In this document: one piece after another, positions 504 to 63,771 of the stretch | How the letters are laid out: every line of letters starts with the position of its first letter | How positions within the stretch are numbered: position 1 is the stretch's first letter | DNA from: Escherichia phage EC128 | Reading direction: 5' to 3' (one strand) | Sequence record: ON210139.1 | DNA: 64,000 nt | The notes under the pieces: generated by a model | Databases searched by the model: none | Told to the model about the DNA's origin: nothing | What the model saw: only the letters and a program-made list of their open reading frames with translations | Position numbers and translations under genes: made by a program

Positions 504-866
504 ATGAAAGCATATCAAATTCTTGAAGGCACACATAAAGGTACTATTTATTTTGAAGATGGTATTCAAGCACGAATTATCGTTTCTAAAACCTTTAAAG
601 AGGACTCTTTTGTAGACCCAGAAATTTTCTATGGTTTGCATGCCCGTGAAATTGAAATTGAGCAACAGCCTACAGTTAAAATTGAAGGTGGTCAACACCT
701 GAACGTTAACGTTCTGCGTCGTGAAACTCTGGAAGATGCAGTTAAGCATCCGGAAAAATATCCGCAGCTGACCATCCGTGTATCCGGTTATGCAGTTCGC
801 TTTAACTCTCTGACTCCGGAACAGCAGCGCGACGTTATCGCTCGTACCTTTACCGAGAGTTTGTAA
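504..866 (+). CDS. autonomous glycyl-radical cofactor, GrcA/YfiD-like (T4 Y06I-like)
   Basis: C-terminal glycyl-radical motif [25 protein letters not shown]; 3' half has GC-rich host-like codons. Confidence 0.85.
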
Positions 867-1087
867 TGGCAAAGATAATTATTGAAGGTTCTGAAGATGT
901 GCTAAATGCTTTCGCCGAATGGTTTAGTAATTCAGGCGAACAGCAATTTAACGAAGCATGGAACATGGGTGATATTAATGGAATTTATCCTACTACAGAA
1001 ATTTCTGTTCAGGGATATGGCATTCATGAACCTATTCGTTTAGTTGAATACGATTTATGTACTGGTGAGGAAGTCAAATATGATTGA
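866..1087 (+). CDS. hypothetical protein
   Basis: 73-aa ORF; ATG overlaps upstream stop. Confidence 0.5.
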   Translation: MAKIIIEGSEDVLNAFAEWFSNSGEQQFNEAWNMGDINGIYPTTEISVQGYGIHEPIRLVEYDLCTGEEVKYD

Positions 1088-1346
1088 AGATATTAAAGGT
1101 TATAAGCCACATACTAACGAAAAAATCGGTAAAGTAAATGCTATTAAAGACGCTGAAGTTCGTTTAGGACTTATCTTTGACGCTTTATACGATGAATTCT
1201 GGGAAGCACTAGATAATTGCGAAGACTACGAATTCGCAAAGAATTATGCTGAAAGCCTCGATCAGCTAACTATTGCTAAAACGAAACTCAAAGAAGCTAG
1301 TATGTGGGCTTGTCGCGCGGTATTCCAACCAGAGGAAAAATATTAA
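1080..1346 (+). CDS. hypothetical protein
   Basis: start trimmed to ATG 1080 overlapping upstream stop. Confidence 0.5.
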
Positions 1347-1624
1347 TGGCTCAATTAAGCGCAGGGTTTGGTTATGAGTATTATACTGCCCCTCGTCGTG
1401 TATCTGTTGCTCCTAAGAAAATTCAAAGTCTTGATGATTTCCAGGAAGTAATTCGTAACGCTTTCCAGGACTATGCGCGTTATCTTAAAGAAGATTCACA
1501 GGACTGTCTCGAAGAAGATGAAATTGCTTATTATGAGCAGCGTCTTGAACAGCTTAAAAACCTACATGAGGTTCGTGCAGAAGTTACAAAGTCTATGAAT
1601 AAATTGATTAGATTTAAAGAATAA
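1346..1624 (+). CDS. hypothetical protein
   Basis: TAATG overlap with upstream ORF; 92 aa. Confidence 0.5.
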
Positions 1625-1626
1625 TT

Positions 1627-1656
1627 GTTTACTTTTCCTCTTGACTGTGGTATAAT
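1627..1656 (+). promoter_or_regulatory. early promoter (-35 GTTTAC, extended -10 TGGTATAAT)
   Basis: GTTTAC 1627-1632, TATAAT 1651-1656, then SD GAGGAG and ATG 1684. Confidence 0.6.
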
Positions 1657-1683
1657 TTTTCTATCAGTTAAGAGGAGAATAAC

Positions 1684-2145
1684 ATGACTATCAACACAGA
1701 AGTTTTTATCCGTCGAAATAAGCTCCGTCGTCACTTTGAGTCGGAGTTTCGTCAAATTAACAATGAGATTCGTGAGGCATCAAAAGCAGCAGGAGTCTCA
1801 TCGTTTCATCTAAAATATTCTCAACATCTTCTTGATCGTGCAATTCAACGGGAGATTGATGAGACATATGTTTTTGAATTATTCCACAAAATAAAAGACC
1901 ATGTTTTAGAAGTTAATGAATTCCTGAGTATGCCTCCGCGTCCTGACATTGACGAGGATTTTATTGATGGGGTTGAATATCGTCCTGGGCGTTTAGAAAT
2001 CACAGATGGAAATCTTTGGCTTGGATTTACAGTTTGTAAACCTAATGCGAAGTTCAAAGACCCGTCACTTCAATGTAGGATGGCCATTATCAACAGTCGT
2101 CGTTTACCAGGAAAGGCTTCTAAAGCAGTAATTAAAACTCAATGA
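1684..2145 (+). CDS. regB: RegB endoribonuclease
   Basis: 153 aa as for T4 RegB; position upstream of tk block; own early promoter. Confidence 0.7.
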   Translation: MTINTEVFIRRNKLRRHFESEFRQINNEIREASKAAGVSSFHLKYSQHLLDRAIQREIDETYVFELFHKIKDHVLEVNEFLSMPPRPDIDEDFIDGVEYRPGRLEITDGNLWLGFTVCKPNAKFKDPSLQCRMAIINSRRLPGKASKAVIKTQ

Positions 2146-5877: not shown

Positions 5878-6066
5878 ATGAAAATTGAAGCACTTAATCA
5901 AGAAGGAAATATCTACGTCATCATTAACGGCGATTTTTTCGTCGACATGGATGAAGTTACCAGTGAAGAACTTGAAGAACTTCTTAAGAAACGTTATGAT
6001 ATGTGTGATGAAGCTGCAACTCATATGGCGTGTGCAATATTCTCTCTTTCATATGTGGTGGAATAA
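5878..6066 (+). CDS. small acidic protein (paralog family)
   Basis: SD GAGGAG then ATG 5878; 62 aa. Confidence 0.5.
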
Positions 6067-6269
6067 TGATTAGTATCGAACAAGCAGATAAAATTAAAGA
6101 ATTGGTAGCTTTAATTCGCAAAGCAGATGAGGAACTTAGTGACTTTGCTTGGTTTTCGGCAGGCATTGCAAATAAAGGTATTGAAGAATTTGAAGCTAAA
6201 GTTGATAATGCTGTAGAAGCTTTAGATATGTTTCTTGATGAAATTATCGATCACAATACGAGAGTTTAA
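6066..6269 (+). CDS. small acidic protein (paralog family)
   Basis: TAATG overlap; 67 aa. Confidence 0.5.
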   Translation: MISIEQADKIKELVALIRKADEELSDFAWFSAGIANKGIEEFEAKVDNAVEALDMFLDEIIDHNTRV

Positions 6270-6271
6270 GT

Positions 6272-6466
6272 ATGCTGACACACGAACAGTTTGAAAAAAT
6301 CATTAAATTAGCACGTGATGTTGAAATAGATTCATATCAATTAGCAGTTGAGCATTGTGAAGGATATTCATACGAAGGTATAGCAGCAGCTAAAAGAGAT
6401 TTGGATGAATCTAAAGCTAAGTTAGTTCAATATCTTGAAATGATTAGGTGGAATAATGAAAACTGA
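6272..6466 (+). CDS. small acidic protein (paralog family)
   Basis: 64-aa ORF. Confidence 0.5.
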   Translation: MLTHEQFEKIIKLARDVEIDSYQLAVEHCEGYSYEGIAAAKRDLDESKAKLVQYLEMIRWNNEN

Positions 6467-6629
6467 AAAGCAGATGTTTTTAATGAAGCTAATTGAAGAA
6501 TATGCTAATGCAGTTTCTGACTATGAGTGTTCTTCTCGTGAAAGGGGTATAGCTTTCGCAAAGGAAGAAATGAAAATCATGGTTGATGCTCATACAAAGC
6601 TTCAGAATTTTATCGAAAACGTCATTTAA
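6456..6629 (+). CDS. small acidic protein (paralog family)
   Basis: 57-aa ORF, hand-translated; overlaps upstream gene end. Confidence 0.4.
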   Translation: MKTEKQMFLMKLIEEYANAVSDYECSSRERGIAFAKEEMKIMVDAHTKLQNFIENVI

Positions 6630-6631
6630 TG

Positions 6632-6661
6632 GTTTACAAGTTGGCAAGGTTATGGTATAGT
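6632..6661 (+). promoter_or_regulatory. early promoter
   Basis: GTTTAC 6632-6637, TATAGT 6656-6661. Confidence 0.55.
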
Positions 6662-6793
6662 AATCTTGTCAACTGCCAAGGAGAAGAGAATGAAAGTTTT
6701 GTTTGTTGTGTATGTGATGATTCAATATAATTACCCAATGTTTACTTATAATCTGGTGAACAACATTATTGATATTATTCAAAGGAGTATGTA

Positions 6794-6979
6794 ATGACAA
6801 GTGAGCAGGCTTTTAAATTAAGAGAATTAATTGAGACGTATAGTAAAGCTGTTCATACATCAACAATTATTGATGAATCAGCTTTCTCCGGACATGCTAA
6901 CAAGATTAAATACAAAACTCTTATGGAAGAAGCTAAAGTAAATCTTGATTCTTATATTGAAACTTTAATTGGTAAATAA
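6794..6979 (+). CDS. small acidic protein (paralog family)
   Basis: 61-aa ORF. Confidence 0.5.
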   Translation: MTSEQAFKLRELIETYSKAVHTSTIIDESAFSGHANKIKYKTLMEEAKVNLDSYIETLIGK

Positions 6980-7113
6980 TATGAAAGCTGTAATTGAAAC
7001 AACTGATTTGTTCGGTGACCTAGTTATCGAAAAACGCGGTAATGTATACGTTCTGACGCAGGAAGACGATAGTATTACTATTCTTCCTATGGAACTGGCT
7101 GCGATTTTATCTT

Positions 7114-7509
7114 ATGCTCCCTCAAACTAATATTACAGGTGACCTCCAAGTTCGTTTTTATCGTGGCCTTTACGGCGGTAATATTGAAACTGAATTTATG
7201 TGTCTTTCTATCAACAATTGGGCAACATTCGTTGCCAAGGTGAAAGAATTCTTAGAATCTGAAACAGTCGAAACACCCGAAAAGGCTAAACTTCAATGGG
7301 CTAAAGATCGCGGTGCTAACATTATTAATCCAGTAGCTGCAAACTATACTACGACTTTGGATGTCAAGACTTCTTATGAAGATGGCGATGTCGTACTTGT
7401 TCGCCAAAATGATGATTCTCGAGCACATATTGTCACATTTACCAAAGACGAAGCTATTGCGCTAAAGACTTATCTTGATTCTGTCATTCCAACTATGATT
7501 TCAAAGTGA
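7114..7509 (+). CDS. hypothetical protein
   Basis: 131-aa ORF. Confidence 0.5.
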   Translation: MLPQTNITGDLQVRFYRGLYGGNIETEFMCLSINNWATFVAKVKEFLESETVETPEKAKLQWAKDRGANIINPVAANYTTTLDVKTSYEDGDVVLVRQNDDSRAHIVTFTKDEAIALKTYLDSVIPTMISK

Positions 7510-7515
7510 GGAAAT

Positions 7516-8043
7516 ATGTTTATTTCAAGTGGAAGTGGTTTAATTCGTGTTGAATTTAAAAATGACATCTTTCTTATTCAAGGAGATGATATTATTAAAA
7601 TGAGTTATGACGAAATCAAGAAAATTTGTCATGCTCTTGAAAGTCATGGAAAAGTGAACGCTGTTATTGATATTGGCGATTTATGGGTGACACTTTATGA
7701 AGTATCCGAAGGATTTAACATTGAAGATGAAAATAACATTTTAGCTATTGATAAAAGAAGTGATTTGTTTGATGTATTAAAAGTTTATGAACAGTCAAAT
7801 GGCGGAAGAAAAGCTGCATTGATTTATCAAAAACCACATTCATGTGGAACTGCTTCAATCATTTCAAATATTGAAGATGAAGATGAAGTTGATACTTATA
7901 TGTGTGTTTTAAAAGCTGGTGGTGACCGTCATCCGGATTTTATTTCTATTCGTCAAAACAATGGAGAAATTTCATTATCAAAATCAGAAGCTGAAGCTAT
8001 GATTAAGTATTTAACAACTGTTACGCCTTCAATGAAAGGATAA
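7516..8043 (+). CDS. hypothetical protein
   Basis: 175-aa ORF with SD GAGGAAATATG. Confidence 0.55.
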   Translation: MFISSGSGLIRVEFKNDIFLIQGDDIIKMSYDEIKKICHALESHGKVNAVIDIGDLWVTLYEVSEGFNIEDENNILAIDKRSDLFDVLKVYEQSNGGRKAALIYQKPHSCGTASIISNIEDEDEVDTYMCVLKAGGDRHPDFISIRQNNGEISLSKSEAEAMIKYLTTVTPSMKG

Positions 8044-8507: not shown

Positions 8508-9517
8508 TGAAAACAGTAATGAAAAGTTATTTTGGCAGTCATCTTTATGGAACTTCTACTCCAGAATCTGATGTAGATTTTAAAGAAATCTTTGTTCCTC
8601 CTGCTCGCGATATTCTTATCGGAAGTGTCAAAGAGCACATGAGTAAAAACACTAACAACACATCATCTAAAAACACTAAAGATGATATTGACCATGAACT
8701 ATACAGTCTTAAATATTTCTTTAAATTAGCAGCAGATGGTGAAACTGTAGCATTGGATATGCTTCACACTCCACCTGAACTAGTGGTTAAATCTGATTTG
8801 CCTGATGTGTGGAAGTTTATTCAAGACAACCGTTCTCGTTTTTATACGACTAACATGAAATCATATTTAGGATATGTCCGCAAGCAAGCTTCTAAATACG
8901 GTGTCAAGGGTTCTCGTTTGGCTGCATTACGTGATGTATTGAAAGTAGTTAATCAAATCCCTGAGCAATGGATTGATTACCAAGAAGATGGTTCTATTAA
9001 GCAGCGTCGCACTAAAGTTGAAGATATTAAGCATCGTCTTCCAGAAAACGAATTCTGTGAATGGGTGTTCCATAATCATGAGAAAACAGGCCCACAAACG
9101 TTCTACACTGTGTTGGGTCGTAAATATCAGACAACTCTTTCTCTTATTGAGCTTAAGCAGTCACTGAACAAATTAGATGCTGAATACGGTGAACGTGCTC
9201 GTAAGGCCGAAGCCAATGAAGGTATTGACTGGAAAGCTCTGAGCCATGCCTGCCGTGGTGGACTTCAACTATTGGAAATTTACAAAACTGGCGACTTGAT
9301 TTATCCACTCCAAGATGCTCCATTTATTCTCGACGTGAAGTTGGGTAAACATCCATTTAAAACAGTTCAAGAGTTTTTGGAAGATGTGGTCGATCAAGTA
9401 GAAGCAGCATCTACTGAAGCTTCTAAGAACGGTATGCCTAAAACAGTAGACATGAGTTTCTGGGATGACTTCCTTGAGAAGGTCTATCTTGAAAACCACC
9501 GAAGTTATTATAAATGA
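8504..9517 (+). CDS. nucleotidyltransferase-fold protein
   Basis: Pol-beta-type motif GSHLYGTSTPESDVDF; 337 aa. Confidence 0.55.
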   Translation: MMKTVMKSYFGSHLYGTSTPESDVDFKEIFVPPARDILIGSVKEHMSKNTNNTSSKNTKDDIDHELYSLKYFFKLAADGETVALDMLHTPPELVVKSDLPDVWKFIQDNRSRFYTTNMKSYLGYVRKQASKYGVKGSRLAALRDVLKVVNQIPEQWIDYQEDGSIKQRRTKVEDIKHRLPENEFCEWVFHNHEKTGPQTFYTVLGRKYQTTLSLIELKQSLNKLDAEYGERARKAEANEGIDWKALSHACRGGLQLLEIYKTGDLIYPLQDAPFILDVKLGKHPFKTVQEFLEDVVDQVEAASTEASKNGMPKTVDMSFWDDFLEKVYLENHRSYYK

Positions 9518-9519
9518 TA

Positions 9520-9546
9520 GGGAGCCTTCGGGCTCCCTTTTTTTAT
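9520..9546 (+). terminator. rho-independent terminator (UUCG tetraloop)
   Basis: GGGAGCC-TTCG-GGCTCCC then T-run. Confidence 0.65.
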
Positions 9547-9646
9547 TTCAAAAATTTTTCACAAAACGGTTTACAAGCATAAAGCTTTATGGTACTATAC
9601 AACTATCAACTACTGATACAGATTTGGAGAATAAAATGAAAACTGT
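9543..9646 (+). repeat. promoter-early/stem-loop (PeSL-like) module, copy A
   Basis: includes promoter GTTTAC 9569-9574; 9591-9642 identical to 38255-38306. Confidence 0.6.
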
Positions 9647-10604
9647 AACTATCAATAAGGGTATCTACTTCGGTAAAGAAATCTCTGGAACTTTTGAGCT
9701 CTTAGGTGAATGGTTCCCAGATAATGCTCCGGTAGATGCACAAGGAGATGGTAAAGTTTTTGTTGAAATTGACGGTAAGCGTCGCGGTGTTTGGGTTTAC
9801 AAATCAGACATTTCATATGATGGTGTAAAAGTTGAAGAAGTTAAAGAATCATATGAAGATATGAAAACCCGCATTAATAAAAGATTTAATGTTATGGGAA
9901 TGATGACGAATGGTATTATTAACGGAAACATTCGTTCATTAATTATCTCTGGTGCGGCGGGTATTGGTAAAACGTATTCTTTAGATAAAGCTTTGAATAA
10001 AGCAAATGATAATGGATACATTGAATATAAAAGCATTAACGGTAAAATCTCCGGTATCGGTCTTTATGAACAACTTTGGAATAATCGTGAAGAGAATTCT
10101 GTCCTTTTGATTGATGATGTGGATGTTTTCTCTGATATGGACATTCTTAATCTTCTGAAAGCTGCTCTGGACACTGGAGAGACCCGTAAAGTCTGCTGGA
10201 GCACTGCATCTTCTTACTTAGAAGAAAAAGGCATTGAGCGTGAGTTTGAATTTAAAGGAACGATTGTTTTTATCACAAACGTTGACATTGACCGCGAATT
10301 AGACCGTGGTACTAAACTTGCTCCACATTTACAAGCATTAGTGTCCCGCTCAGTTTATTTAGATTTGGGTGTTCACACTAATGAAGAAATTATGGTCAGG
10401 GTTGAAGATGTTATTCTTTCAACTGACATGATGCAAAAGCGCGGTCTTTCTGATGAAGAAACTTATAAAGCATTATCATGGATGAAAGTCAATGTTAATC
10501 GTTTACGCAATGTTTCACTGCGTACTGCTCTTTATCTTGCTGACTTTATTATGACCGACAAAAACGGTTGGGAAGAAATCGCTGAAACAGTATTATTAAA
10601 ATGA
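9636..10604 (+). CDS. AAA+/P-loop ATPase
   Basis: Walker A SGAAGIGKT, Walker B LLIDDVD; start trimmed to ATG 9636. Confidence 0.65.
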   Translation: MKTVTINKGIYFGKEISGTFELLGEWFPDNAPVDAQGDGKVFVEIDGKRRGVWVYKSDISYDGVKVEEVKESYEDMKTRINKRFNVMGMMTNGIINGNIRSLIISGAAGIGKTYSLDKALNKANDNGYIEYKSINGKISGIGLYEQLWNNREENSVLLIDDVDVFSDMDILNLLKAALDTGETRKVCWSTASSYLEEKGIEREFEFKGTIVFITNVDIDRELDRGTKLAPHLQALVSRSVYLDLGVHTNEEIMVRVEDVILSTDMMQKRGLSDEETYKALSWMKVNVNRLRNVSLRTALYLADFIMTDKNGWEEIAETVLLK

Positions 10605-11320
10605 AAAAATATTTTACTATCTATAAAACTGAAATATTAAATTTAAAGACAGGTATTAAGAAATACTATTATGGTCGACATATAACTAATAATATCAATG
10701 ATTCGTATGTTGGTAGTGGAAATTATATAGAACGTGTAAAAGTGTCAAATGACCACATATTATCAAAAACGGTTTTAGAAGTTTTTGATAATTATGATAA
10801 AATGGTACAAGCTGAAATATTATATATCATGGCAGGTAAATTGAAATATGGGAAAAACTGTGTTAACCTGTCATACGGGGGTGAAGGAGGAAAGGTTGCA
10901 GATGAAACTAGGATAAAATGCAAAAAGCATTCTATAAATTTATGGAAAAATCCTAATCATATACAGCATATGAAGAAAAAGATGAAAGAGGTCACATCCA
11001 CGCCGGAAGCTAAATTAAACACTTCAATAAAAACTTCGCAACGATATAAGGACCCGGTTTTTGTTAGAAAAGTTAGTAATATTATTAAAAAGAAACTAAG
11101 CAATCCTGTAGTAAAAGAAAAGCATATTAATGGAATTAAAGCTGCAAAGCGTTCTCATTTAACTATATGGCAGTATGAAGATGAATTATTCGAGCTCTGG
11201 AAAGAAACTAAATGTGGATGGAGAAAATTTACAAAGGAAGCTATAAAACACGGATATCCAAATGAACCGTATCGTAGTATGGTATCAACTTTTCAGAAAA
11301 GACATTTAGAAGAATCCTAA
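10601..11320 (+). CDS. free-standing GIY-YIG-like homing endonuclease (possibly mobD by position)
   Basis: N-terminal YYYGRH...YVGSG, repeated NUMOD-like motifs; paralog of 21849, 40071, 49456. Confidence 0.6.
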   Translation: MKKYFTIYKTEILNLKTGIKKYYYGRHITNNINDSYVGSGNYIERVKVSNDHILSKTVLEVFDNYDKMVQAEILYIMAGKLKYGKNCVNLSYGGEGGKVADETRIKCKKHSINLWKNPNHIQHMKKKMKEVTSTPEAKLNTSIKTSQRYKDPVFVRKVSNIIKKKLSNPVVKEKHINGIKAAKRSHLTIWQYEDELFELWKETKCGWRKFTKEAIKHGYPNEPYRSMVSTFQKRHLEES

Positions 11321-12757: not shown

Positions 12758-13645
12758 ATGTCAGCGGTAATTAATAATGTCAATGCAGTAATTAAATCTT
12801 TAGTTAATAAAAAATCAAATGAATGGACTGTACTTCAACGCGACAAGTCAGATAAATTTTTTCATAAATTTAACCCAGTACTAAATTTAAATGTTATTGA
12901 TAAAGATGTTCACGCCGAAATTTTAGATAAGTTTAAAGTTGATATTGGATTTGGATTAGAAAAACATTTACAACGAACAAACGAGTCTGGAATGCTTTTA
13001 TCTAATCGCATCATGAAAGCCCTTAATAAAATTGGAGCATTGTCTCGCATTAACGCGAGTGAAATTCTTCGCAATTATAATAAAGGATATGACCTTTATG
13101 GCCGACTAATGCCAAAATTATCATTCGACCAAATGATTGCGGATTTGTGGGAAAATCAACGACGATTATTAGCATTAGGTGCTCGATTAGCTAAAGGTCT
13201 AGATAAACAAATGATTTTTAAAACTAATAATACAGAAGACCTTAAATGCTTTAAATTTAGTACTCGTGGAGATGATTATTACGTCAGAGCTCACTCTACA
13301 GATTATGTTAATATGGGGCATCATCTCTGTTTAGCTTTTGAAGTTTTAAAAGAAGCTGGAACATTAGAATATGTGTCTGGTGCTAAATGCCCGATTGGTT
13401 CAAGTTGTATTTTAATTTATCGCCCGGATGAATCCAGTTCATCTAAATTGCCTACAAAACCTGCACCAGTTCGTAGTAACGAAAAACATTCTGAACAAAT
13501 TGATTATTTTAATAAGCAAATTGAAGAGCTGAATATTTCTATTCAACGATATGACGATGAAATTTTCAGACTATCTGGATTGAGTAGTAAAGCTAAATCT
13601 GAACGTGAAAAATTAATTAAAATTGTTGATTTACTTAAATCTTAA
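12758..13645 (+). CDS. coiled-coil protein, paralog 1 of 4
   Basis: SD GAGGAAAATATG; C-terminal heptad-rich tail. Confidence 0.55.
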   Translation: MSAVINNVNAVIKSLVNKKSNEWTVLQRDKSDKFFHKFNPVLNLNVIDKDVHAEILDKFKVDIGFGLEKHLQRTNESGMLLSNRIMKALNKIGALSRINASEILRNYNKGYDLYGRLMPKLSFDQMIADLWENQRRLLALGARLAKGLDKQMIFKTNNTEDLKCFKFSTRGDDYYVRAHSTDYVNMGHHLCLAFEVLKEAGTLEYVSGAKCPIGSSCILIYRPDESSSSKLPTKPAPVRSNEKHSEQIDYFNKQIEELNISIQRYDDEIFRLSGLSSKAKSEREKLIKIVDLLKS

Positions 13646-13653
13646 GGAACACC

Positions 13654-14673
13654 ATGAAAACTCGTTCTCAAATTGAAGATATGGTTCGTAATGCCAGTTA
13701 TACTCGTGATGTTATGACATTTTTGTGCCAAAATAATTTAGACCCTGATAAAGTTAATCGTGATATTCACTTTAAATATCTAAATAGCATTGAATTGTTA
13801 CGTCATTTTAGTAAAGCGGGGTATATTACACAAATGACTGCTCGTGAGCAGCTCACCGATTTCTGTAAAACTATTGATTATAAAAATCCTCTATTTGTTC
13901 AAGGCGTTGGTCAGAGTAAGGTCGATTTATCATCTGGATTTTTCAATCCAAATCATTATCGTCTTGAATGGAGATTTATTGCTCTATTCCGTAAACAATT
14001 AAAGCAAATTTTGTCTACTGCTAGTCGATTAAAAGGTTCTGATATTAACTTAAAGAATCTGAAATTTGATGGTTATACTCTTCAAATGGAAGTAAGACCA
14101 TCTAAAGAAAATAATAGAACTGCACGAATTAGCTTTAAGCCTAATACTAAAAATTCTCTTTCAATTTGTGAATGCCTTAAATCGCAGTTGACAGAAGCAT
14201 TTAAGTATATGGATGTTGTTGCTGCTGTTCAATCTAAGATTTTACCTCGTTTTGAGCGAAATTGGGAACATACAACAACATATGAACTTGATATGATCGT
14301 TTCATTTAAATACGATTTTTTGAGAAAGGACGAAGTCCCGCAAGAGAAAAAGCAAGAAGTGCAAGATAACTTAAATTTATCCAATTACTCATCAAACGAT
14401 CCTAAATTTTGGATGTATAGTTCAGGTAATAAAGATGCATGGAAATTCAATAAAGTGAATTTTCTTCCTGTTGAAAATCCGAGTCTTAAACCTGTTGAAA
14501 AATGGCACGCGGATGCGATTGAGAAGTCTATCAAGGCAGTAGATGATGAACTCGTTAAAGCAACTAATGAAGTGTTAGAAGCTGAAAAGATGTTAGAAAA
14601 AGCTCAAGAAAAAGTCAAAAATCTCGCGAAGCAACGTTCTAAACTGAACAATGCACTAAATGCACTAAACTAG
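13654..14673 (+). CDS. coiled-coil protein, paralog 2 of 4
   Basis: 339 aa; shares FR.F.KQ.K.ILS.AS.L motif. Confidence 0.6.
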   Translation: MKTRSQIEDMVRNASYTRDVMTFLCQNNLDPDKVNRDIHFKYLNSIELLRHFSKAGYITQMTAREQLTDFCKTIDYKNPLFVQGVGQSKVDLSSGFFNPNHYRLEWRFIALFRKQLKQILSTASRLKGSDINLKNLKFDGYTLQMEVRPSKENNRTARISFKPNTKNSLSICECLKSQLTEAFKYMDVVAAVQSKILPRFERNWEHTTTYELDMIVSFKYDFLRKDEVPQEKKQEVQDNLNLSNYSSNDPKFWMYSSGNKDAWKFNKVNFLPVENPSLKPVEKWHADAIEKSIKAVDDELVKATNEVLEAEKMLEKAQEKVKNLAKQRSKLNNALNALN

Positions 14674-14702
14674 TTTACTTTGCCACAAGGATGTGGTATA
14701 AT
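14673..14702 (+). promoter_or_regulatory. early promoter
   Basis: GTTTACTTTGCCACAAGGATGTGGTATAAT; near-identical copy at 63742. Confidence 0.6.
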
Positions 14703-14730
14703 GTTCTTACTTTCTACTGAGGAGATTATT

Positions 14731-15732
14731 ATGACTCGTAACGAATATATCAAATCATTCAATAGCGTTATTGATGATAAAGTTAAACCTGTGTTTAGTC
14801 AGAATAGTGTTATTTCCATTATCAATCAATGGCTAAATAATATTGATGTAAGCATTGTTTCTTCCAGCAAATTTATTCACGAAGTTCGTGAAATTTCTAG
14901 TCGTACAGATAAAGATGACATTAAGAAAACCTTTAAAGGGTCTCGTCTTCTTTCATACTTAGTCAACAGAGATATTCTTGGTAAATTTGGGAAAGAAATT
15001 AAACGAACTAAAGATGTAATAGGATACAGTTGGTTCGGTGATGTTAATTCTTATCATCTTAATAATAAAGAAGACCCTGAGAATATTTTTACTCGTCGTT
15101 GGATTAGTAATTTTAGACTTTTCAAGAAGCAAATTCTAAAATCAGCTTCTAAATTATGCTATGGTGATTATCGTCAAATCCATCCTTGGGCTTCTGATAT
15201 GATTATCATAAAAGAATATGAGCTTGATAAAAATAAAGCAGCTATTTTTGTGAATTATGAATTTTTTACACCAGAAGCTAATCAAAAGAACATTAATAAA
15301 TTTTTCTCAATTGCTAGCGATATAACTCGTCAGTTAGAGACCGCATTACTTTGTATGGAAACAGTAGAAAATATTCATACTTATCCTTTTAAGAATATAT
15401 GCGGTTGGGAAGGATATAAAATTGTAGTTAGTCTCCGTGAAGTAAAGTGTGCGTACTCACCGACTGATAAAGAAATTTACCAACAAAAATGTGATGAAAT
15501 TGTGAATACTCCTAAAGAAGAAACTACCCTTGAGGAACTAATGGAATGTCTTGACGATTCGCCTGAACCAGTAGAAATTCGTCCAGAAGTTATTGCACTA
15601 GAAAAAGCTTATAAAGAAGTTCTAGAAATTTCTAATAAAGCGCAGAAAGAATATGAGCAGGCTAAAAGGATTTGGGAAGAATCTGTTAATCGCCTGGATC
15701 GTCTTGAACAAGCTTTACAGTTAATTAAGTAA
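14731..15732 (+). CDS. coiled-coil protein, paralog 3 of 4
   Basis: start trimmed to ATG 14731 after SD GAGGAG. Confidence 0.6.
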   Translation: MTRNEYIKSFNSVIDDKVKPVFSQNSVISIINQWLNNIDVSIVSSSKFIHEVREISSRTDKDDIKKTFKGSRLLSYLVNRDILGKFGKEIKRTKDVIGYSWFGDVNSYHLNNKEDPENIFTRRWISNFRLFKKQILKSASKLCYGDYRQIHPWASDMIIIKEYELDKNKAAIFVNYEFFTPEANQKNINKFFSIASDITRQLETALLCMETVENIHTYPFKNICGWEGYKIVVSLREVKCAYSPTDKEIYQQKCDEIVNTPKEETTLEELMECLDDSPEPVEIRPEVIALEKAYKEVLEISNKAQKEYEQAKRIWEESVNRLDRLEQALQLIK

Positions 15733-15784
15733 TTTAAAGCCAAGGATGGCTCGGAGTATAAATCATTAACCAAGTGAGAAGAAC

Positions 15785-16714
15785 ATGAAAACTCGTAAAC
15801 ATTATATTGATTATTTTGACAGCCTTATTACTAAACATCGTAATTATCAGATCGGGCACAGAGCAGTAATCAATAATATTCTTCGTGATTTCCTTCAATA
15901 TGTTGGCCAGGAAAATCATATCTGTAAAGATACTCAGAACGCTTATTCTCATTCGTTAGGCAATTTGCTTCAATGGTTTAAACGTTCTCGTCTGTTATCT
16001 TCTACTGTAGCTCGTGATAACATTGAAAACTTTATGAAGCCGAGCTTCATTAAATCTGCGACATCTATAACCGATTTGGTTGAATTTACTATTGTTAACG
16101 ATGTTAAAAAGACCCATTTGGCTGATTGGTTATCTACCATTCCCGAAACTAAATTTGCTGATAAATTCGCTTGTCAATTCAATGACCAAGTGAATATGCT
16201 TTTTAAGCATGCTCGTAAACTATTTACCGCGGGCGATGACCGTACAAATACAGTTCATGTTAAGGATTGGGTTATTGCTGATGAAGTAACACATAAGCCA
16301 GGTGGTTCATCAGTATTAATTAATATCCAGGTTCCTTATTATTACTCACGTAATCTCGGCACCATGAACTCTAGAGAAATTAATAAGCACAACAAAACTA
16401 TTCGTTCGTTGTCTTATAAACTCCGCATGATGTTAAAAATCATGGACGTAGTAGAAATGTATGACGAAACCGAAGATAATGGTTCAATGCTGTACAGTTC
16501 ACGCATTCTAATTAAACTGAAGAACCCTAATACATATAAGCCAGTTGTAAAAGAACCTAAAGCAGAAAAGGCTGATAACCTGAGTGAAGAACGCGAATAT
16601 CTCAAATCTCGACTGGTTGAAGTTGAAGCCCAGATTGCCGAACACACCAAATTGTTAAAAGCTCTTAATGCAAAAGCAAATGGTTTACGTAATGCTATTG
16701 AGGTACTGAAATGA
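15785..16714 (+). CDS. coiled-coil protein, paralog 4 of 4
   Basis: 309 aa, C-terminal coiled coil. Confidence 0.6.
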   Translation: MKTRKHYIDYFDSLITKHRNYQIGHRAVINNILRDFLQYVGQENHICKDTQNAYSHSLGNLLQWFKRSRLLSSTVARDNIENFMKPSFIKSATSITDLVEFTIVNDVKKTHLADWLSTIPETKFADKFACQFNDQVNMLFKHARKLFTAGDDRTNTVHVKDWVIADEVTHKPGGSSVLINIQVPYYYSRNLGTMNSREINKHNKTIRSLSYKLRMMLKIMDVVEMYDETEDNGSMLYSSRILIKLKNPNTYKPVVKEPKAEKADNLSEEREYLKSRLVEVEAQIAEHTKLLKALNAKANGLRNAIEVLK

Positions 16715-17007
16715 AAAAGCGCTTATTAGAAGATATTGCCGAAGCTTCAGATTTTCCTGAATGGACTCCATGCGCTGGGTTTGATAAAGGGCTGCTAGTT
16801 ACCGACGATTTAGACTTTAAACCTCCAGCATGGGATGCCATTATGGCTATGGTTAGTCGTCGTGAGCAATCTTCTAAGAATGTTCCAAACTGCCCAAAGT
16901 GTGGTACTGAACAGGTACAATTAGTTCATTGGCAGACTAGTATTCTTCGTTATAAATGTCGTCATTGCAAACACCGATTTAACCGAGAAGAAAATGACCA
17001 AGCGTAA
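16711..17007 (+). CDS. zinc-ribbon protein
   Basis: CPKCG...CRHCKH; ATGA overlap. Confidence 0.5.
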
Positions 17008-18535: not shown

Positions 18536-19009
18536 ATGTTATTGACTGGCAAATTATATAAAAAAGAAAAACAGAAATTTTATGATGCACAAAATGGTAA
18601 ATGCTTAATTTGCCAACGAGAACTAAATCCTGACGTTCAAGCTAATCACCTCGACCATGACCATGAATTAAATGGACCAAAAGCAGGAAAGGTACGTGGA
18701 TTGCTTTGTAATCTATGCAATGCCGCAGAAGGTCAAATGAAGCATAAATTTAATCGTTCTGGCTTAAAGGGACAGGGTGTTGATTATCTTGAATGGTTAG
18801 AAAATTTACTTACTTACTTAAAATCCGATTACACCCAAAATAATATTCACCCTAACTTCGTTGGAGATAAATCAAAGGAATTTTCTCGTTTAGGAAAAGA
18901 GGAAATGATGGCTGAGATGCTTCAAAGAGGATTTGAATATAATGAATCTGACACCAAAACACAATTAATAGCTTCATTTAAGAAGCAGCTTAGAAAGAGT
19001 TTAAAATGA
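18536..19009 (+). CDS. 49: endonuclease VII (Holliday junction resolvase)
   Basis: 157 aa, His-Me finger HLDHDH...N, four Cys. Confidence 0.85.
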   Translation: MLLTGKLYKKEKQKFYDAQNGKCLICQRELNPDVQANHLDHDHELNGPKAGKVRGLLCNLCNAAEGQMKHKFNRSGLKGQGVDYLEWLENLLTYLKSDYTQNNIHPNFVGDKSKEFSRLGKEEMMAEMLQRGFEYNESDTKTQLIASFKKQLRKSLK

Positions 19010-19543
19010 CAATTGAAAAAGAAATTGAAGGATTGATTCATAAAACTAATAAAGACCTTTTGAACGAGAATGCTAATAAAGATTCTCGTGTTTTTCCAAC
19101 TCAACGGGACCTTATGGCTGGTATTGTGTCTAAACACATTGCCAAAAATATGGTCCCGTCTTTTATTATGAAAGCGCATGAAAGCGGAATTATCCATTTC
19201 CATGATATTGATTATTCCCCTGCTCTTCCATTTACTAATTGCTGTTTAGTAGATTTAAAAGGAATGCTTGAGAACGGATTTAAGCTCGGTAATGCACAGA
19301 TTGAAACTCCTAAATCAATTGGCGTTGCTACTGCAATTATGGCACAAATTACTGCACAGGTTGCTTCCCATCAATATGGCGGAACGACTTTTGCGAATGT
19401 AGATAAAGTACTTTCTCCTTATGTTAAACGCACCTATGCAAAACATATTGAAGATGCAGAAAAATGGCAAATCGCCGATGCGTTGAATTATGCTCAATCT
19501 AAAACAGAAAAAGACGTATACGATGCATTCCAAGCTTATGAGT
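19006..19543 (+). CDS. nrdD: anaerobic ribonucleotide reductase NrdD, exon 1
   Basis: ends at U of AUGAGU, which pairs with intron guide GCUCAU; exons sum to 605 aa. Confidence 0.85.
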
Positions 19544-19747
19544 TAACGTAAGTCAAGCTCATGTAAAATCTGCCTAAAACGGGAAACTCTCACTGAGACA
19601 ATCCGTTGCTAAATCAGCGGTAGCTGTAAATGCCCAACGACTATCCCTGATGAATGTAAGGGAGTAGGGTCAAGCGACCCGAAACGGCAGACAACTCTTA
19701 GAGTTGAAGATATAGTCTGAACTGCATGGCGACATGCAGCTGTTTAT

Positions 19748-19771
19748 CCTCGTATAAATACGAATACGAGG
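19748..19771 (+). promoter_or_regulatory. late promoter inside an SD-sequestering hairpin
   Basis: CCTCGTA-TAAATACGAA-TACGAGG; TATAAATA 19753-19760; SD GAGG in 3' arm. Confidence 0.55.
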
Positions 19772-19778
19772 TGAAACG

Positions 19779-20555
19779 ATGAAATGGAAATTAAGAAAAA
19801 GCTTAAAAATTGACAATTCTGTAGCATTTACCTATATGGTAAGATTTCCTGATAAGTCTTTTTATATAGGTTTTAAAAAATTCAAAACTATATATGGTAA
19901 AGATACAAATTGGAAAGAATACAATTCGTCATCTAAGCTTGTTAAAGAAAAGCTTAAAGATTATAAAGCTAAGTGGATAATTCTTCAAGTTTTTGATTCT
20001 TATGAATCGGCCCTTAAACATGAAGAAATGCTTATTAGGAAACATTTTAATAACGAATTTATTCTTAATAAATCTATAGGTGGATATAAATTTAACAAAT
20101 ATCCGGATTCAGAAGAACATAAGCAAAAACTTAGTAATGCCCATAAAGGTAAAATCTTATCTTTAAAACATAAAGATAAGATACGAGAGAAATTGATTGA
20201 GCATTATAAAAATAATAGTAGAAGTGAAGCTCATGTTAAAAATAATATTGGTAGTAGAACGGCTAAAAAGACTGTTTCTATAGCTTTAAAATCCGGAAAT
20301 AAATTTAGAAGTTTTAAATCAGCTGCAAAATTTCTTAAATGCTCTGAAGAACAGGTTAGTAATCATCCAAATGTTATAGATATAAAAATAACAATTCATC
20401 CCGTCCCAGAATATGTTAGAATAAATGACAATATCTATAAATCATTTGTGGATGCTGCTAAAGATTTAAAACTCCACCCAAGTCGTATTAAAGATTTGTG
20501 CTTAGATGACAATTATCCAAATTACATTGTTTCATATAAACGGGTAGAGAAGTAG
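19779..20555 (+). CDS. I-TevII: intron-encoded homing endonuclease I-TevII
   Basis: 258-aa ORF inside the intron; divergent GIY-YIG N-terminus. Confidence 0.75.
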   Translation: MKWKLRKSLKIDNSVAFTYMVRFPDKSFYIGFKKFKTIYGKDTNWKEYNSSSKLVKEKLKDYKAKWIILQVFDSYESALKHEEMLIRKHFNNEFILNKSIGGYKFNKYPDSEEHKQKLSNAHKGKILSLKHKDKIREKLIEHYKNNSRSEAHVKNNIGSRTAKKTVSIALKSGNKFRSFKSAAKFLKCSEEQVSNHPNVIDIKITIHPVPEYVRINDNIYKSFVDAAKDLKLHPSRIKDLCLDDNYPNYIVSYKRVEK

Positions 20556-32707: not shown

Positions 32708-33394
32708 ATGAAACTGTCTAAAGATACTACTGCTCTGCTTAAAAATTTCGCTACTATTAACTCCGGTATTATGCTTAAATCCGGTCAATTTATTATGACT
32801 CGCGCAGTTAATGGTACAACTTATGCAGAAGCAAATATTTCTGACGTTATTGATTTTGATGTAGCGATTTACGATTTGAACGGTTTTCTCGGTATTCTGT
32901 CTCTAGTTAATGATGATGCAGAAATTTCCCAGTCAGAAGATGGAAATATTAAAATTGCTGATGCTCGTTCAACAATTTTTTGGCCAGCAGCCGATCCGAG
33001 TACAGTAGTTGCTCCTAATAAACCAATTCCATTCCCGGTAGCATCTGTTGTTACTGAAATTAAAGCTGAAGACCTTCAACAACTGTTGCGTGTATCTCGC
33101 GGTCTGCAGATTGATACAATTGCTATCACAGTAAAAGAAGGTAAAATCGTAATTAACGGTTTTAATAAAGTAGAAGATTCTGCTTTGACCCGTGTTAAAT
33201 ATTCTTTGACTCTTGGTGATTATGATGGTGAAAATACATTTAATTTCATTATCAATATGGCAAATATGAAAATGCAACCAGGAAATTATAAACTTCTGCT
33301 CTGGGCAAAAGGTAAACAAGGTGCTGCTAAATTTGAAGGTGAACACGCGAATTATGTAGTAGCTCTTGAAGCTGATTCTACCCACGACTTTTAA
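32708..33394 (+). CDS. 45: sliding clamp gp45
   Basis: 228 aa; heads the 45-44-62-regA-43 array. Confidence 0.9.
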   Translation: MKLSKDTTALLKNFATINSGIMLKSGQFIMTRAVNGTTYAEANISDVIDFDVAIYDLNGFLGILSLVNDDAEISQSEDGNIKIADARSTIFWPAADPSTVVAPNKPIPFPVASVVTEIKAEDLQQLLRVSRGLQIDTIAITVKEGKIVINGFNKVEDSALTRVKYSLTLGDYDGENTFNFIINMANMKMQPGNYKLLLWAKGKQGAAKFEGEHANYVVALEADSTHDF

Positions 33395-33398
33395 TAAA

Positions 33399-33413
33399 GG
33401 GCTTCGGCCCTTT
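33399..33413 (+). terminator. UUCG-tetraloop terminator/stability hairpin
   Basis: GGGC-TTCG-GCCC then TTT. Confidence 0.55.
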
Positions 33414-33445
33414 ATAATTTACACTAAAACTTGAATGAGGAAATT

Positions 33446-63742: not shown

Positions 63743-63771
63743 TTTACTTTACCACAAGGATGTGGTATAAT
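63742..63771 (+). promoter_or_regulatory. early promoter
   Basis: GTTTACTTTACCACAAGGATGTGGTATAAT, near-identical to 14673. Confidence 0.6.

Follow-up and report, generated by a model that had tools for sequence, protein, structure and literature searches.

The nrdC.6–nrdC.3 array of a T4-like coliphage: four remotely related proteins as candidate counter-defence factors

Even in T4, which has been studied more than any other phage, the majority of accessory genes have no function. A role has been reported for one of them, nrdC.5, which lets T4 overcome Dsr1, a SIR2-domain defence that depletes NAD+ (Srikant, Guegler & Laub, eLife 2022; PMC9391042). In a T4 evolution experiment, clones from which a block of accessory genes had disappeared were unable to plate on ECOR17, and deletion of dsr1 from this host restored plating of the T4 deletion mutant (PMC9391042). 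In addition, plasmid-borne ECOR17 dsr1 protects MG1655 from the deletion mutant, and expression of T4 nrdC.5 restores infection (PMC9391042). According to a 2026 preprint, the tetratricopeptide repeat (TPR) sensor of EcDsr1 is triggered by a phage major capsid protein (PMC12803255). Here we analyse the same locus in a 64,000-nucleotide stretch of Escherichia phage EC128 (sequence record ON210139.1; hereafter the window), where four consecutive genes, nrdC.6, nrdC.5, nrdC.4 and nrdC.3 (positions 12,758 to 16,714), appear to descend from a common ancestor, and we propose with moderate confidence that they encode inhibitors of different host immune proteins.

The window belongs to a T4-like coliphage of the genus Tequatrovirus, and the 4-kb stretch of the array matches 646 phage records, with 96% DNA identity to genomes of this genus, among them that of Escherichia phage AV119. 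Judged by identity and gene order, the four open reading frames (ORFs) are intact orthologs of T4 nrdC.6, nrdC.5, nrdC.4 and nrdC.3, in that order, and are labelled A, B, C and D, respectively. They lie on the same strand, each behind a Shine-Dalgarno-like sequence, and encode 295, 339, 333 and 309 residues. The array is flanked by nrdC.7 and nrdC.8 upstream and by nrdC.2, nrdC.1, nrdC, pin, gene 49 and nrdD downstream; the window runs opposite to the T4 reference record NC_000866, in which the order of the four genes is otherwise the same. An earlier note, made from the letters of this DNA, had placed the four ORFs (starts at 12758, 13654, 14731 and 15785; 295-339 residues) exactly, and it assigned no function; the T4 gene names and the published role of one member went unrecognised. 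B matches the Pfam family DUF7235 (PF23882) at 416.6 bits against a cutoff of 30, with residues 1-339 on model positions 1-307 of 307; it occupies the orthologous slot between nrdC.6 and nrdC.4, upstream of nrdC, at a synonymous divergence (dS) of 0.19 from T4 nrdC.5. The anti-Dsr1 activity, experimentally established for T4 nrdC.5, concerns a protein of which B is, by sequence, a 92% identical ortholog. A matches the NrdC.6 family over its full length (phrog_2257; PF26899), with 105 homologs that carry a precomputed PF26899 assignment, and all 64 homologs of C carry PF26897.

Databases keep these proteins apart: Pfam files the four as three separate families, and PHROGs places nrdC.4 and nrdC.3 together (C and D both match the model phrog_1435 significantly and over their full length) and nrdC.5 and nrdC.6 apart. 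Among the four, pairwise BLASTP is significant for C–D alone (E 7e-8). On BLASTP alone, therefore, the result comes close to a lack of significant similarity among the four, the outcome that the earlier note had named as fatal to its claim of diversified tandem paralogs. A first round of hhalign with low-diversity families gave weak, mutually consistent and colinear matches, with nothing significant beyond C–D, and a signal beyond this pair appeared only after the profiles had been enriched with diverged orthologs from five other genera (Mosigvirus, Dhakavirus-like, Gaprivervirus, Kagamiyamavirus and Winklervirus loci). The enriched comparison joins all four. The hhalign values are 98% for C–D (E 3e-14), 86-89% for B–C (E 2-6e-6), 56-63% for B–D (E ~1e-4) and 94% for B against C+D (E 1e-7); A reaches 62% against the B family (E 7.7e-5) and 91.5% against the merged B+C+D profile (E 8.6e-7, score 53 with null maxima of 19-21), and direct A–C and A–D profile comparisons are not significant (P 0.02-0.13). 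Real comparisons score 40-61 versus 9-26 for the controls, which comprised reversed profiles (13-22), 160 column shuffles (maxima 19-26), the neighbouring genes nrdC.2, nrdC.7, nrdC.8 and nrdC.10 (9-17) and seven unrelated ORFs from other T4-like phages (12-24). Moreover, the aligned stretch comprises motifs 1 and 2 (described below) and leaves out the coiled coils; a biased composition of the tails therefore does not account for the signal. An alignment of 28 sequences is colinear from an N-terminal MKTR/MTR through a C-terminal L..A[LI]..LK. Taken at the level of sequence profiles, these results support the view that the four proteins are remote paralogs, as the earlier note had supposed, with nrdC.6, the most divergent member of the superfamily, as the weakest link. 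Other candidates for membership were ruled out: nrdC.2, nrdC.7, nrdC.10 and nrdC.8, the last of which also has a helical C terminus, by their hhalign scores, and EcS1 ORF092 and X20 gp086 (257 residues, next to an nrdC.5-like gene) by profile comparison.

The proteins share a layout as well. A helical N-terminal part carries motif 1 at its end ([GS]-x-L-S-x-x-x-A-R-[ED]-x-L-x-x-F) and is followed by a helix with motif 2 (Q-x-x-[LI]-L-x-x-A-[SR]-[RK]-L-x-x-G). Next come a small module, in which a helix lies between two beta-hairpins, and a disordered linker whose length varies; the C-terminal part is a coiled coil that ends in L-x-x-A-[LI]-x-x-L-K. The earlier note had described one central motif common to all four; in the form given there it is present in B (FRKQLKQILSTASRLKG) and C (FKKQILKSASKLCYG) only, and D (QVNMLFKHARKLFTAG) and A (NQRRLLALGARLAKG) have a degenerate version. 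A second shared motif lies about 40-60 residues upstream of the central one (GYITQMTAREQLTDF / RLLSYLVNRDILGKF / RLLSSTVARDNIENF / GALSRINASEILRNY). A pattern generalised from it has no other occurrence in the six-frame translation of the window, but the pattern was derived after the fact and serves as an illustration rather than a test. The heptad-rich tail claimed for each protein is borne out in all four by periodicity: in the last ~50 residues, heptad positions a and d are 75-94% hydrophobic compared with 18-30% elsewhere, and the periodicity extends over at least four heptads with no Pro/Gly breaks. The AlphaFold models of A and B show long helices there (residues 280-338 of B with a predicted local distance difference test score, pLDDT, of 80-94; residues 242-271 and 277-294 of A).

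The AlphaFold2 model of A (pLDDT 77.8; predicted template-modelling score 0.66) consists of a helical N-terminal region, two helices with motif 2 and the hairpin-helix-hairpin module; residues 226-242 form a disordered linker, and a pair of helices makes up the C terminus. In the model of B the elements follow one another in the same order, and the terminal helix of 59 residues is confident; the low overall pLDDT of this model, 44.6, is due to the small depth of its alignment. No solved structure is significantly related in fold to the A model, and searches of the family profiles against PDB sequences found nothing. Among predicted viral structures, Foldseek matches the A model to nrdC.6 orthologs and then to proteins of 304-335 residues in T4-like phages of Enterobacter, Pectobacterium and Acinetobacter, with 12-16% identity, E values of 1e-7 to 2e-5 and TM of ~0.5. 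One of these, E5EPQ6, is probably Acj9p122 of Acinetobacter phage Acj9, an assignment made from length only that would extend the family to Acinetobacter phages. Acj9p122 (836-1813, minus strand, 325 residues) lies between gene 49 and nrdC.10. It contains motif-1/2-like helices and a linker rich in Ser, and its C-terminal part is a coiled coil. A relationship of the motif-1 region to the SAM-like N terminus of XerD and other tyrosine recombinases (Phage_int_SAM_1) was considered and rejected, since D alone, one of the 28 members, matches such models (Pfam E 0.05; NCBIfam E 0.0015, 17.8 bits against a cutoff of 279).

The family occurs in T4-like phages only. A HMMER search of 1.84 billion representatives with the C+D profile retrieved only 9 proteins, none of A or B type, and no cellular homolog was found. 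The array has four members in Tequatrovirus; nrdC.6, nrdC.5 and nrdC.4 in Gaprivervirus and a Dhakavirus-like phage; nrdC.6, nrdC.5 and nrdC.3 in Mosigvirus; and a single nrdC.5-like gene in Kagamiyamavirus and Winklervirus. Between genera, nrdC.5 orthologs in the same genomic slot share 23-28% identity (tblastn), and those of five genera have only 11 invariant residues, mostly hydrophobic; nrdC.6 and nrdC.4 keep 42-52% identity. The four genes evolve faster than their neighbours: relative to T4, their ratio of nonsynonymous to synonymous divergence (dN/dS) is 0.14-0.28, compared with 0-0.09 for gene 49, nrdC, nrdC.1, nrdC.8 and nrdC.9. D is only 61% identical to T4 NrdC.3 (dS 1.1) and 76% identical to NrdC.3 of Mosigvirus Shf125875, and two allele classes of nrdC.3 are both frequent among Tequatroviruses (653 phage records); by these identities, nrdC.3 alleles are exchanged between genera. 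The adjacent nrdC.2 is 71% identical to T4 and the flanking genes 92-100%, so that positions 15785-17007 look like a mosaic allele replacement. The array also seems to be rearranging at present, as indicated by P0056, where the middle of nrdC.5 is fused in frame to nrdC.3 from motif 2 on and nrdC.4 is deleted, and by P0122 (Shigella phage Sf25), whose nrdC.6 contains an internal duplication of 83 residues. The annotation of AV119, the closest relative, splits both nrdC.5 and nrdC.4 into two coding sequences apiece (5961-8039), which may be pseudogenes or sequencing errors; both genes are intact in the window. A homing-endonuclease-like ORF of 239 residues (10601-11320; phrog_314, E 6e-30) lies between the nrdC.10 and nrdC.9 homologs; it has no Pfam match, and T4 has no gene at that site. 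The description of this region as hyperplastic in the earlier note agrees with the range of array sizes from four to one, the two nrdC.3 allele classes, the fusion and duplication variants and the nearby homing endonuclease.

The reading that we favour, with the moderate confidence stated above, is that the nrdC.6–nrdC.3 block is of common ancestry and encodes early, oligomeric, non-enzymatic binding inhibitors, each directed against a different host immune protein. All four would derive from one ancestral gene and have kept its layout; their transcription would be early and would start in part at early promoters of their own. The globular part would determine target specificity, and the coiled coil would assemble the protein into dimers or larger oligomers, in keeping with the many defence proteins that are themselves oligomeric. 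NrdC.5 would neutralise Dsr1 most likely by binding it before the late capsid trigger appears in the cell. We infer direct binding, oligomerisation and the anti-defence roles of nrdC.6, nrdC.4 and nrdC.3, and binding is favoured over catalysis because there are no conserved catalytic residues and no match to an enzyme family or fold, and because of the early promoters, the rapid divergence and the coiled-coil tail. The divergence of nrdC.5, the elevated dN/dS, the varying number of members and the exchange of nrdC.3 alleles together form an arms-race signature that supports this reading, and the narrow distribution of the family speaks for it as well. The earlier suggestion of host-range or counter-defence factors thus holds for nrdC.5, whose T4 ortholog was shown to act against Dsr1, and for nrdC.6, nrdC.4 and nrdC.3 it is backed by homology and context only.

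Several points weigh against the favoured reading. The link from A to the others is a stretch of ~70 residues and depends in part on a merged profile that presupposes the homology of B, C and D. A common fold of the four is a possibility suggested by the order of secondary-structure elements in A and B, of which the B model has the low pLDDT given above, and oligomerisation is suggested by heptads only. With dN/dS under 1 throughout, the ratios do not establish positive selection. A literature search turned up passing mentions of nrdC.3, nrdC.4 and nrdC.6 and no experiment on these three. For nrdC.5, the source paper (PMC9391042) gives no mechanism, and the effect on Dsr1 could be indirect. 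Finally, a polar patch (GYDLYGR, NQRRLLALGARLAxGxDKQMxFKTN) is strongly conserved in ~15 diverged sequences of the nrdC.6 family, and it could just as well be a site of catalysis or of nucleic-acid binding.

This polar patch feeds two of the alternatives. If the four were enzymes that modify or degrade a defence protein, signal or substrate, the motif 2 region would be the active site, and the conservation of the nrdC.6 motif would be expected; many phage anti-defence proteins are indeed enzymatic, such as Acb1 and those of the NAD+ reconstitution pathways NARP1-3. However, no column is invariant across the superfamily in the 28-sequence alignment, the nrdC.5 family is almost without polar invariants outside the coiled coil, and neither an enzyme-family match (Pfam, NCBIfam) nor a similar solved structure was found, which makes catalysis improbable in our estimate. 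A role as general early proteins of host takeover or regulation, acting on host nucleic acid or core machinery, is a more serious competitor, although still unlikely. The anti-Dsr1 effect would then be indirect, for example through the timing or level of the capsid trigger or through NAD+ metabolism, which the undescribed mechanism of nrdC.5 leaves room for; the richness of the nrdC.6 patch in R, K, N and Q is compatible with nucleic-acid binding, and the genes occur in nearly all of ~650 Tequatrovirus records, a conservation greater than that of many accessory anti-defence genes. On the other hand, the evolved T4 clones paid no cost on their laboratory host for losing the genes, and the sole reported phenotype is specific to a defence and is relieved by deletion of dsr1 (PMC9391042). 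Extreme divergence between genera and variable copy number also fit takeover proteins poorly, and Pfam and NCBIfam detect no nucleic-acid-binding domain, the weak XerD-like match of a single member aside.

It might also be that nrdC.5, nrdC.4 and nrdC.3 alone are true paralogs and that nrdC.6 is unrelated, its resemblance being convergent or compositional. BLAST indeed finds nothing for nrdC.6, the direct comparisons of A with C and D give the P values noted above, and the C+D profile retrieves no nrdC.6-type protein with HMMER. We nevertheless consider this very unlikely given the E values of A against B and against the merged profile, an alignment outside the coiled coil in which the two motifs keep their order and their distance, the same order of secondary-structure elements in A and B, and the Foldseek matches of the A model to proteins of ~300-335 residues in other T4-like phages, one of them apparently in the same genomic slot in Acj9. 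At the other extreme, the favoured reading of early binding inhibitors could be extended to one superfamily of modular immune antagonists ranging from Escherichia to Acinetobacter T4-like phages, in which swappable heads set the target and coiled coils homo- or hetero-oligomerise into a multi-specific anti-defence complex. We regard this extension as speculative and, as a whole, unlikely.

The promoters proposed for the array resemble a known element. Promoter-early stem-loops (PeSLs) follow the consensus TTTACW-N17-TAYWAT in the T4/PST phage pair and are, according to a published proposal, the means by which modules are shuffled in hyperplastic regions (PMC4122927). The claim of the earlier note that two of the four genes have a promoter-like sequence of their own is accurate, with a good match before C and a weaker one before D (Table 1). 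The first matches the promoter at 10 of 12 positions plus TG and fits the full PeSL consensus in an intergenic position; the second fails a stricter sigma-70 scan; both hairpins have an AGGA loop. Overall, promoter-like sites in the region are not above chance (26 found, 27.6 expected). With the degraded copy counted, nrdC.4 is bracketed by two PeSL-like motifs, which is consistent with its absence from Mosigvirus. In total, five PeSL-type composites (-35 / hairpin / -10) lie on the + strand of the window, at 14674-14702, 15733-15762, 9570-9598, 33390-33418 and 63743-63771, and the copy at 63743 is nearly identical to that at 14674, 49 kb off (TTTACTTT[G/A]CCACAAGGATGTGGTATAAT).

Table 1. Positions of the four genes, their parts and two promoter-like sites in the window
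Feature	Coordinates	Strand	Details
A, T4 nrdC.6 ortholog, 295 aa	12758..13645	+	phrog_2257 E 1.5e-147; 89% aa identity to T4 NrdC.6
A, motif 1	aa 86-112 (nt 13013-13093)	+	
A, motif 2	aa 129-151 (nt 13142-13210)	+	
A, motif-3 helix	aa 186-205	+	
A, coiled-coil tail	aa 245-295 (nt 13490-13642)	+	
B, T4 nrdC.5 ortholog, 339 aa	13654..14673	+	phrog_2351; 92.3% aa identity to T4 NrdC.5
B, motif 1	aa 48-73 (nt 13795-13872)	+	
B, motif 2	aa 105-130 (nt 13966-14043)	+	
B, motif-3 helix	aa 175-193	+	
B, coiled-coil tail	aa 280-339 (nt 14491-14670)	+	
Early-promoter-like site, stem-loop in spacer	14674..14702	+	TTTACT-N17-TATAAT, TG-extended -10, hairpin CCACA-AGGA-TGTGG; just upstream of nrdC.4
C, T4 nrdC.4 ortholog, 333 aa	14731..15732	+	phrog_1435 E 3.5e-166; 91.6% identity to T4 NrdC.4
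C, motif 1	aa 65-89 (nt 14923-14997)	+	
C, motif 2	aa 122-149 (nt 15094-15177)	+	
C, motif-3 helix	aa 198-216	+	
C, coiled-coil tail	aa 285-333 (nt 15583-15729)	+	
Weaker, degraded PeSL-like site	15733..15762	+	TTTAAA-N18-TATAAA, hairpin GCCA-AGGA-TGGC; upstream of nrdC.3
D, nrdC.3 ortholog of non-T4 allele class, 309 aa	15785..16714	+	phrog_1435 E 4.2e-116
D, motif 1	aa 61-86 (nt 15965-16042)	+	
D, motif 2	aa 126-154 (nt 16160-16246)	+	
D, motif-3 helix	aa 206-227	+	
D, coiled-coil tail	aa 266-309 (nt 16580-16711)	+	

Some annotations around the array deserve correction or comment. Homologs of nrdC.1 to nrdC.11 are labelled ‘thioredoxin’ in many GenBank records (hundreds for nrdC.3, nrdC.4 and nrdC.6), a label that stems from the locus-tag style ‘nrdC.N’ only; none of the four proteins matches a thioredoxin model in Pfam or NCBIfam. 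Some T4 RefSeq products here also look mis-propagated from gene names, for example that of mobD.4 (‘molybdopterin-guanine dinucleotide biosynthesis protein MobD’) and that of gene 49.2 (‘ribonucleotide reductase’). The ORF listed for nrdC.10 (9465-10604, 379 residues), which has weak matches to AAA/STAND-type NTPases (GAAGIGKT), is probably overlong, as the family model aligns only from residue 58 and there is a PeSL-like promoter at 9570. Downstream, an ORF of 258 residues with GIY-YIG / NUMOD features (19779-20555) lies within an apparently interrupted nrdD (19006-20555), which resembles the T4 nrdD intron with I-TevII.

In summary, the locus is a known one, and the counter-defence role of nrdC.5 was published in 2022; the modest addition made here is the evidence for one superfamily and a hypothesis for nrdC.3, nrdC.4 and nrdC.6. 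Since nrdC.5 disarms Dsr1, paralogy makes the other three good candidates against other defences, and three ‘hypothetical proteins’ thereby become specific candidate inhibitors of other bacterial immune systems. A variable head joined to a conserved coiled coil would also provide a framework for mapping specificity and for predicting the host range of therapeutic T4-like phages. If the idea of a superfamily of modular antagonists is true, each paralog defines a new inhibitor-defence pair; if nrdC.3, nrdC.4 and nrdC.6 have no anti-defence role, the unification of the family remains of modest interest.

Among described systems, T4 NrdC.5 (DUF7235) is the closest. B shows no substantive difference from it in identity, full-length match or genomic slot, and the window allele may share its activity, whereas A, C and D are remote paralogs only and are filed separately by Pfam and PHROGs. 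A functional parallel is DSAD1 of phage SPbeta, which, in the part of the literature consulted, blocks the sirtuin-domain, NAD+-depleting DSR2, as proposed for NrdC.5 and Dsr1; it binds DSR2 and suppresses the activity triggered by a phage structural protein. The analogy is functional only, because no homology between NrdC.3-6 and DSAD1 was detected. The T-even internal proteins (IPs) IPI/IPII/IPIII and the dmd-tifA-adfA ‘anti-TA island’ are likewise clusters of fast-evolving, dispensable T4 accessory genes, each of which defeats a different host defence; they are lost or swapped between related phages (PMC9391042; PMC4122927). Unlike NrdC.3-6, however, these proteins are small, unrelated in sequence and without a coiled-coil architecture, and the IPs are injected with the DNA, whereas nrdC.3-6 are expressed after infection. 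Lastly, the two PeSL-like motifs flanking nrdC.4 recall the PeSL modules (Arbiol 2010; Comeau 2014), and PeSLs at ~50-51 kb of phage PST correspond to this very region (PMC4122927). PeSLs, recognised here from their sequence, account for the gain and loss of modules and not for the function of the proteins that these modules encode.

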